Shown: one piece after another, positions 36,233-38,038 of the stretch
Position numbering within the stretch: the first letter of the stretch is position 1
Layout: the number at the start of each line of letters is the position of its first letter
Assembly: GCF_041248615.1 (NCBI RefSeq)
Contig: NZ_CP158426.1
Source of the DNA: Escherichia coli
Lineage (GTDB): Bacteria; Pseudomonadota; Gammaproteobacteria; Enterobacterales; Enterobacteriaceae
Length of the DNA stretch: 64,000 nucleotides
Direction: 5' to 3' (one strand)
Translations under genes and position numbers: made by a program
The notes under the pieces: generated by a model
What the model was told of the DNA's origin: nothing
What the model saw: only the letters and a program-made list of their open reading frames with translations
The model's database searches: none

Positions 36233-38038
36233 TCACCGTATTCTCTGAAACAGGCCCCAAATCGTCCCAATGATATTATTCACTGTCATGTTAGTTGTGC
36301 ATAACATCCATGTACCAAGCATAGGATCGCCAAATAAAAAGCGGATATCTGTAAGTTTATCCGATGACGACGACACAATAACGGCCTGTCTGATACGATA
36401 CCCGGGTATTTCACGGGTATTTGTTACCTCATGATTTCGTTCTATGATCCCCAGAACATAAGACCCCACGGAATAAACACTTCCGACGCTCGCTGGCTGC
36501 CCCGGCTGTCCCTGTGGTCCTGCCGGGCCGCGTTCACCTGTATACCCTCTTGGCCCCTGAGGACCTGCCGGGCCGCGTTCACCTGTATCCCCCTTTAGTC
36601 CCTGTGGACCTGCCGGACCGCGTTCACCTGTATCGCCCTTTGGTCCCTGTGGACCACGCTCCCCCTGGGCTCCCAGCTCTTTCCATTCAGACCAGGGGCC
36701 ATTACCGGTAAAATTACCAGTAACAGTTCTTACGAACTTTCGTGGTGGGTTCCAGGTTGTATATTCATGCTGGCAATATCCCCATGCACCAACTCTTACC
36801 TGAAGATAACCCGCTCTCTGAATCGGATAATTATTTTCTCGTGTAGCCCCACTGTCTGATGGCTGATAATAATCACCCTGATCGGTCACTCGTCCCAGTC
36901 GGTTCAGATCACCATTCAGCAGTTGTCCACGGGCTGACTCTCCTCTTGGTCCCTGTGGACCTGCCGGGCCGCGTTCACCTGTTTCACCTTTTGCTCCCTG
37001 TGGACCTGCCGGGCCGCGTGCACCTGTTTCACCTTTTGGTCCCTGTGGACCTGCCGGGCCGCGTGCACCTGTTTCACCCTTTGCTCCCTGTGGACCTGCC
37101 GGGCCGCGTTCACCTGTTTCACCTTTTGGTCCCTGTGGACCTTCCGGGCCACGTTCACCTGTATCGCCCTTTGGTCCCTGTGGACCTGCCGGACCACGTT
37201 CACCTGTTTCACCTTTTGGTCCCTGTGGACCTCCCGGATCTCCTTTATCCCCCTTAGGGCCTTTTTCTCCTCGCTCACCCTTTTCTCCCTTCAGACCCTG
37301 AGGGCCTTCCGGACCACGTGCACCTGTTTCGCCCTTTGCTCCCTGTGGACCTGCCGGGCCGCGTTCACCTGTTTCACCTTTTGCTCCCTGTGGACCTGCC
37401 GGGCCGCGTGCACCTGTTTCACCCTTTGGTCCCTGAGGACCTGCCGGGCCGCGTTCACCTGTATCGCCCTTTAGTCCCTGTGGACCTGCCGGACCGCGTT
37501 CACCTGTTTCACCTTTTGGTCCCTGTGGTCCTGCCGGGCCACGTGCTCCTGTTTCACCTTTTGGCCCCTGTGGCCCGGTAATGCCTCTTTCACCACGAGC
37601 GCCGGTATCCCCTTTCTCTCCTCGTGGTCCCCGGGCAGATGCAGCTCGTTTCCGGGCTTCCTCCGCCTCAGATGCCGCGGACTCTGCTCTGTGCAGTATG
37701 GACTGCACCACAGCCTCCAGCTCTGACAACGCCTTCGGATAATAAGGAGCATCTTCCATCTCCATCAGAAATTTATTCAGTGTTCCCGGTGAAGAATCCT
37801 CCCTGACCACGATATCTCCCACATACGAAGGACGGTAACCTTCTGTATTGAGTGTCACCCTGTATATTCCTGGCTCCACATCCATACTGTAACTCCCCGT
37901 CTCTTCCGGCATGCCATAAGCCACTGTCGTGGCGATGACTGTCTCACTGGTTCTCTTCGCTTTCAGCTCAATAATGCATCCCGGTACCGGTTTTCCGGTT
38001 CCGTCCCTCAGCACGCCTGAAATTTTTACAGCCGCCAT
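36233..38038 (-). CDS. Side tail fibre protein with collagen-like Gly-X-Y repeats
   Basis: 601-aa ORF; prophage tail-fibre N-terminal domain, long [19 protein letters not shown] repeat region. Confidence 0.8.
36490..37610. repeat. 45-bp tandem repeat array encoding collagen-like triplets within the tail fibre gene
   Basis: Units of the form ctgtggacctgccgggccgcgttcacctgtttcaccttttggtcc repeated about 20 or more times with minor variation. Confidence 0.85.

Follow-up and report, generated by a model that had tools for sequence, protein, structure and literature searches.

The region analysed, hereafter the window, is a stretch of 64,000 nucleotides from contig NZ_CP158426.1 of Escherichia coli (RefSeq assembly GCF_041248615.1), and holds a set of lambdoid tail genes in which J and lom are located upstream of a gene for a protein of 601 aa. 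The features of this gene and its two neighbours are, all on the minus strand:

38104..38703, minus: lom, Ail/Lom outer-membrane protein (PF06316, E 7e-125), upstream of the fibre gene
36233..38038, minus: side tail fibre gene, 601 aa (ORF, translation, PF08400 and PF01391, RefSeq annotation)
37631..38038, minus: PfN domain, aa 1-136 (PF08400 at aa 3-133, E 4.4e-40, score 137 bits, cut-off 26.6)
37235..37630, minus: collagen block 1, aa 137-268, 44 triplets (triplet phase, TRF)
37220..37243, minus: register break GDPGGPQG, aa 266-273 (translation; a feature known from PMC3368898)
36935..37231, minus: collagen block 2, aa 270-368, 33 triplets (five full and two partial units)
36674..36934, minus: non-collagen insert, aa 369-455, 87 aa, 261 bp (predicted pyocin-knob-like beta domain)
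36494..36673, minus: collagen block 3, aa 456-515, 20 triplets (two full units and partial units; TRF 36508-36655)
36236..36493, minus: C-terminal domain, 86 aa (framework Y-x-V-G-S ... P-G-T-W ... L-F-Q-R-I)
35643..36218, minus: DUF4376 gene, 191 aa (PF14301; phrog_1141 'tail fiber protein', E 5e-62), downstream of the fibre gene

The side tail fibre gene and its surroundings

The product of the fibre gene is found in RefSeq as WP_202888934.1 (NZ_LT599825.1). The window corresponds to positions 4547546-4611545 of NZ_LT599825.1, a sequence of E. coli NRZ14408. An earlier note, made from the letters of the window alone, had called the gene a side tail fibre gene, and this assignment is well founded: residues 3-130 show 51% identity to aa 2-129 of lambda orf-401, the N-terminus of Stf (E 3e-36), the PF08400 match lies far above its cut-off, the gene follows J and lom, and all strong PHROG matches of the protein are to tail fibre families. 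The PfN domain is presumably the attachment point to the tail tip. The collagen region, which matches Collagen PF01391 with an E of 2.2e-48 in Pfam, begins at aa 137 immediately after PfN, with no PCoil between the two. The DUF4376 protein, which has 56% identity to ORF-191A of P-EibA, probably acts as an accessory to the fibre or in its assembly; one pairwise comparison with lambda Tfa gave no significant similarity (E 0.043).

An IS1414 insertion splits J, which leaves the prophage defective and unable to build a normal tail tip; the J/IS1414 junction is unique to the NRZ14408 genome, and a search for inverted repeats of at least 14 bp at the IS1414 ends returned none. About 2.2 kb downstream of the fibre gene, the eib-type gene carries an inserted Mu-like prophage. 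Despite these defects the fibre gene itself is intact, and it may be idle or a relic in its host strain.

Structure of the 45-bp repeat

Glycine occupies every third residue over 97 triplets, divided into three blocks of 44, 33 and 20. Translation of the minus strand confirms that each 45-bp unit encodes five Gly-X-Y triplets, 15 residues of the form GPA-GPQ-G[P/A/L]K-G[E/D]T-G[E/A]R. The collagen-coding DNA amounts to 876 bp (36494-36673 and 36935-37630), about 780 bp of which are called as period 45 by TRF, in one array at 36942-37573 (14.4 copies, 80% matches, score 697) and a second at 36508-36655 (3.3 copies, 88% matches, score 220). About 17 in-frame copies of the 45-base repeat are present in the gene, and by register there are 14 full units and some five partial or degenerate ones; block 1 contains seven in-register units (37271-37585) with degenerate units on either side. 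The consensus 45-mer has seven matches at three mismatches or fewer, all inside the array and none elsewhere in the window, and no match in 100 dinucleotide-preserving shuffles. The array has a G+C content of 62-68%, compared to 54% for the window.

The earlier note had described the stretch 36490-37610 as a long array of near-identical 45-bp units. The period of 45 holds, both by TRF and against the shuffles, but the array is not continuous, as the 261-bp insert and the register break interrupt it. Nor are the units near-identical: between the 14 full ones, pairwise nucleotide identity is 85% on average and ranges from 56 to 100%. Some pairs from different blocks are identical or nearly so, the units at aa 212 and aa 342 matching at 45 of 45 positions and those at aa 182 and aa 474 at 44 of 45. 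The register break lies in a degenerate stretch near 37226-37270, where an extra glycine at aa 269 (GDPG|GPQG) shifts the Gly-X-Y phase by one residue. Neither this break nor the globular insert that splits the array was mentioned in the earlier note.

Pairs of identical residues in the units use the same codon in 73% of cases, against 38% expected if codons were used as in six structural genes of this lambdoid prophage (J, the tape measure gene and head genes), indicating that the repeat is an amplified DNA unit and not mere convergence on a protein motif. The 45-bp repeat is thus a true repeat at the DNA level, beyond what constraint on the protein would give.

The insert and the C-terminal domain

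The 87-aa insert gives no match to Pfam when searched alone, even at E values up to 10, but is assigned to phrog_6578, a tail fibre family, with an E of 1.7e-8. An AF2 model built from an alignment of 37 sequences has a pLDDT of 93, and the top PDB entries found with it by Foldseek are 6CL5, 6CL6 and 6CT8, the fibres of R1 and R2 pyocins, at a probability of 1.0, TM scores of 0.65-0.70 and E values of 2e-3 to 5e-3, while the next, unrelated matches have E values above 1. The model thus identifies the insert as a predicted pyocin-knob fold, and a protein fragment with 72% identity is named 'pyocin knob domain-containing' by NCBI. In an exhaustive search, 272 representative proteins proved to carry the domain, frequently more than once per protein and frequently in fibres that lack collagen. 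In a word-indexed protein search, the insert alone returned only three fragments and the C-terminal domain alone only five, and neither had a meaningful match among PDB sequences.

The C-terminal 86 aa show no Pfam match at E values up to 10, no PHROG match and no PF06820 (PfC). The AF2 model of this domain, built from a seven-sequence alignment, is weak (pLDDT 69.6) and finds no credible match by Foldseek. In alignments, the framework of the domain is common to ORF-401 of P-EibA and to at least five divergent variants. We presume that it forms a trimerisation and/or receptor-binding tip, which is a guess, since the domain has no identifiable fold.

Relation to the EPcl proteins and other phage fibres

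The family of E. coli prophage collagen-like fibres was already described before the present case, a point that was also absent from the earlier note. Ghosh et al. 2012 (PMC3368898) gave the name EPcl to the E. coli prophage collagen-like proteins, which combine PfN with collagen domains and end in one of several types of C-terminus. Experiments on recombinant EPclA in the same text show a trimer that contains a collagen helix and a trimerisation domain at the C-terminus. The text also reports that the length of collagen differs between copies in multiples of three residues, that a GXPGGPXG interruption is conserved in the family, and that PCoil is 'often missing' in EPclC, a typical trait that is not strictly defining.

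The 601-aa protein carries PF08400, PF01391, the GDPGGPQG break, the residue preferences of the family and a location in a lambdoid tail region. Its X position is Pro in 46%, Asp/Glu in 35% and Ala in 11% of triplets, and its Y position Arg/Lys in 43%, Gln in 20%, Thr in 18% and Ala in 13%, while the figures given for EPcl (PMC3368898) are about 48% Pro and about 36% Asp/Glu in X, with Lys/Arg, Ala, Gln and Thr in Y. The favoured triplets of EPcl are given in the same source as GPK, GPQ, GPA, GER and GET; the five commonest here are GPQ, GER, GPA, GET and GPK, and the five triplets of the unit are exactly the five commonest EPcl triplets. Judged by its sequence, the 601-aa protein is a member of the EPcl family, and it appears closest to type EPclC.

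The prototype of EPclC, ORF-401 of P-EibA, likewise has a PfN domain, no PCoil, two collagen regions around a globular domain, a GXPGGPXG break in the first collagen region and a non-PfC C-terminus with the common framework. The gene order is also the same in P-EibA, namely J, lom, the fibre gene, a gene for a 191-aa DUF4376 protein (orf-191A) and an eib-type YadA gene (eibA). The two proteins differ in that ORF-401 has Pf2 (PF03406) between its collagen regions where the 601-aa protein has the predicted pyocin-knob fold, and PF03406 gives no match to the 601-aa protein even at E values up to 10; the presence of Pf2 in ORF-401 is taken from the prototype sequence, while the text of PMC3368898 gives Pf2 for EPclB only. 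They also differ in the length of collagen (117 and 75 aa in ORF-401, 232 and 60 aa here), in that their overall identity is only about 55%, and in that the array of 15-aa units is much more regular in the 601-aa protein.

EPclA and EPclB of the O157:H7 prophages (ECs2717, Z1483), which are the only EPcl members with experimental data, share PfN and collagen, the side-fibre location, the X and Y preferences and the favoured triplets, but have a PCoil coiled-coil and a PfC (PF06820) C-terminus, both absent from the 601-aa protein. The homology to lambda Stf (orf-401/orf-314) is confined to the N-terminal 130 aa (51%) and the position after J and lom; the lambda shaft is rich in Ala and Ser, with Pf2 repeats, a gp37-like tip and no collagen, and the lambda order is J-lom-stf-tfa, whereas here the DUF4376 gene takes the position of tfa. 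The knobs of the R-type pyocins (6CL5, 6CL6, 6CT8) agree with the insert in fold, at TM 0.65-0.70 over 87-88 columns, but have only 19-25% identity and are placed in a beta-helical fibre and not between collagen helices.

Strain-specific numbers of Gly-X-Y triplets are also known from unrelated proteins and organisms, with other unit lengths. In BclA of B. anthracis the repeat number sets the length of the exosporium filaments (Sylvestre 2003, as cited in PMC10470788), and in the collagen-like ORF8 of the Guarani/Sputnik virophage the loss, in frame, of 81 nt of collagen-like repeats accompanied an expansion of host range (PMC7242381).

Variation in the number of units

Among 5426 complete E. 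coli genomes, DNA-level relatives of the fibre gene occurred in only 23. A megablast search of the gene against a phage collection found nothing, and relatives there were reached by tblastn only. An alternative count of 14-32 places per genome, read as many collagen loci, was rejected, as these are most likely off-register self-alignments of one array. The whole 1806 bp are 100% identical in 12 records, which come from five complete genomes of different sizes. The identical and the differing alleles are as follows, lengths being given relative to the window:

LR-31, DG34x set, OY754371, OY754357, LT599825: identical 1806 bp
Strain 135: 45 bp fewer in block 3, otherwise no difference in 1761 bp
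Ch1: 45 bp more
ECCNB12-2: 135 bp fewer
TUM9803: 90 and 135 bp fewer
TUM1886: 90 bp more, two 45-bp losses and a 432-bp in-frame deletion

The earlier note had expected arrays of this kind to expand and contract and had suggested a comparison of repeat number among related prophages. The comparison, which was run, bears this out, with differences of whole units throughout. The allele of strain 135 has lost exactly one 45-bp unit; since a perfect direct repeat of 25 bp bounds the deletion, it fits equally well at 26 positions, anywhere within 36519-36588. The 432-bp deletion of TUM1886 runs between collagen blocks and removes the knob together with the distal block. All natural indels preserve the frame.

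In a large protein collection, the proximal blocks of close relatives contain 19, 24, 29, 34, 39 or 44 triplets, steps of five triplets that equal one unit, and the distal blocks mostly 10, 15 or 20 and in some cases 11, 16, 17 or 21, though short-read contigs are the source of some of the shorter database alleles, in which the array may have collapsed during assembly. The commonest allele among the close relatives is 441 aa, and the 601-aa allele of the window therefore has one of the longest shafts in its lineage.

Base substitutions are also concentrated in the collagen DNA, which holds 23 of the 25 that separate B771 from the window, with none in the knob or the C-terminal domain. For 136 of 142 such substitutions, another unit of the array already had the variant base in that column, compared to about 98 expected by chance, an excess that is only modest but hints at shuffling or conversion of units more than at new mutation.

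Proposed model and alternative explanations

The explanation that best accounts for these data as a whole, with a probability that we put at about 85%, is that the region is the shaft-coding part of a side tail fibre gene of a lambdoid prophage. From N to C, each chain would consist of the Stf-type domain, 77 triplets with the GXPGGPXG kink, the knob, 20 triplets and the small C-terminal domain. In analogy to EPclA, although that protein has a different C-terminal domain and a PCoil domain not found here, three chains would wind into a collagen triple helix, a thin shaft that would hold the distal domain away from the tail tip, and from collagen geometry (0.288 nm per residue) the stalks should measure about 67 nm and about 17 nm with the knob in between. 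The shaft would have arisen by tandem amplification of the 45-bp unit of five triplets. Long perfect matches between units, such as the 25 bp at the strain 135 junction, allow whole units to be added or removed in frame, and slipped-strand mispairing or unequal homologous recombination would be the route. On the same geometry a change in copy number, as the earlier note had proposed, would alter the length of the fibre, each unit gained or lost shifting the shaft by about 4.3 nm and leaving the globular domains untouched, and we infer that the number of units may in turn influence adsorption or host range. Recombination between collagen blocks could also delete the knob.

The units might, more tentatively, act as a frame-preserving homology cassette, which would provide both length steps of about 4.3 nm and the deletion or exchange of modules between prophages, and so change host range faster than point mutation; this we consider possible but rather doubtful. 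If so, the replacement of Pf2 by the knob and the knob-less allele of TUM1886 would be its products.

An alternative of some standing, though we would not bet on it, is that the arrays serve mainly as in-frame homology tracts through which fibre modules (the knob, the C-terminal tip) are exchanged between, or deleted from, prophages that share a host, and not in length tuning. The in-frame loss of knob and distal block between collagen blocks in TUM1886 speaks for it, and the identical or nearly identical units in different blocks, the occurrence of the same knob in collagen-free fibres, and Pf2 at the position of the knob in ORF-401 of P-EibA, with collagen on both sides in each protein, all point the same way. 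Collagen-like repeats were likewise suggested to be hot spots of recombination in S. thermophilus phages, as cited in PMC7242381 and in PMC5601072. The variation seen is, however, mostly simple gain or loss of units within a block, and module exchange is compatible with, and not exclusive of, a shaft of variable length.

That the protein is a bacterial surface or virulence adhesin of the Scl1/Scl2 or Lcl kind, carried as prophage cargo and not as a virion fibre, is improbable. It would fit the neighbouring lom and eib genes, which encode surface proteins of lysogenic conversion, and the intact state of the gene in a defective prophage, and the best NCBIfam matches are indeed SclA, Lcl and SclB. 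These matches are, however, far below the curated cut-offs (224 against 400 bits), cover the collagen region only and are compositional, and the reading based on them was rejected for these reasons. The protein furthermore has no LPXTG anchor, its N-terminus is the lambda Stf domain and not a secretion signal, the knob is a tail-fibre module, and the strong PHROG matches all fall in tail fibre families.

We give similarly low odds to the copy number, or the whole array, being an artefact of assembly by collapse or expansion of the tandem. Units with perfect matches of 25-45 bp are hard for short reads, and the warning of the earlier note on this point is plausible, as the public relatives include many collagen-like proteins labelled 'partial', from contigs of 0.2-2.3 kb; the literature on NRZ14408 yielded no information on the sequencing platform. 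The identical 1806-bp gene in five complete genomes of different sizes makes such an artefact unlikely, and every allele is in frame and differs by whole units, which at a mean identity of 85% are distinct enough for unique placement.

A CRISPR-like or other non-coding array, to which the regular 45-bp periodicity and the raised G+C content could have pointed, was rejected as next to impossible because the units abut head to tail without unique spacers and lie in frame wholly inside the 601-aa ORF, with glycine at every third codon for 97 triplets; the Pfam Collagen match (E 2e-48) and the frame-preserving indels agree with this, and no cas genes are annotated within positions 1-50000 of the window.

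Significance

The array is an ordinary coding repeat of a family already described, and its recognition as such is useful for annotation, since such arrays disrupt assembly from short reads and may be wrongly flagged as repeat elements. To the EPcl family, the present case adds a clean natural deletion of one unit with a 25-bp flanking repeat, array lengths that are quantised from 19 to 44 triplets in steps of five, and an EPclC-like architecture in which a predicted pyocin-knob domain replaces the Pf2 repeat. Side tail fibres have a part in the choice of cells for phage adsorption and in its speed, and lengthening or shortening of the shaft by whole units would be an easy way for prophage host range, and gene transfer between E. 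coli strains, to vary.

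Fibre gene and its alleles

A candidate for the receptor-binding tip of the fibre is its C-terminal domain (aa 516–601, window 36236–36493), which belongs to a family with a conserved framework of the motifs Y-x-V-G-S, P-G-T-W and L-F-Q-R-I, and with stretches between these motifs that vary strongly, as seen across at least six variants of the domain. The domain has no relative in Pfam, PHROG or PDB, and structure modelling of this region gave no confident model. In TUM1886 (NZ_CP128970.1; positions 2727–4100 of fibre locus L010) the allele encodes 457 aa. An in-frame deletion of 432 bp between collagen blocks has removed the distal collagen block as well as the knob domain, and the N- and C-terminal domains are intact. 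Among the public relatives, many are collagen-like proteins labelled 'partial' whose contigs measure 0.2–2.3 kb (P0001–P0003, P0153–P0156, P0189 and P0190 of the protein collection), which suggests that short-read assemblies are commonly broken inside the array of 45-bp units. In-frame tandem duplications are also present in two further tail genes of the window:

5349–5883, 261 bp x 2 (94%), tape measure gene of the Mu-like prophage
41013–41338, 174 bp x 1.9 (92%), distal part of the tail-tip gene J

Surroundings of the fibre gene

ISCro1 elements of the IS66 family repeatedly flank or interrupt the fibre locus in relatives (strains 135, GF60, TUM9803 and AR_0085; loci L004, L006, L007 and L008); the GF60 copy of the fibre gene is itself split. 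The interval between J and the fibre gene is variable among the same four loci: some have lom there, others a pair of hypothetical genes. Window 34050–34917, downstream of the fibre gene, is what is left of an eib/YadA-like gene for a trimeric autotransporter, and an eib-type gene is found at the corresponding place in P-EibA, an E. coli prophage. The remnant contains a 99-bp tandem repeat (34124–34368, 2.5 copies, 97%) and is without the C-terminal membrane anchor, which was lost at the insertion of a Mu-like transposable prophage into the lambdoid one; comparison with strain B771 places the breakpoint at about 34050. The inserted prophage occupies window 1–34049 and encodes a MuB-like ExeA ATPase, Gam, Mor, P2-type contractile tail genes and the following transposase:

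25916–27685, DDE transposase of the Mu-like prophage

The plus strand carries its early genes and the minus strand its late ones, a divergent arrangement that differs from that of Mu itself.

Interruption of the tail-tip gene

Gene J (window 38771–43999) is divided by an insertion of IS1414, a member of the IS256 family:

40577–43999, N-terminal part of J
39459–40667, IS1414 transposase
38771–39484, C-terminal, receptor-binding part of J

Among 5426 complete E. coli genomes the J/IS1414 junction is present in NZ_LT599825.1 only, and with J interrupted the lambdoid prophage is therefore defective in NRZ14408.
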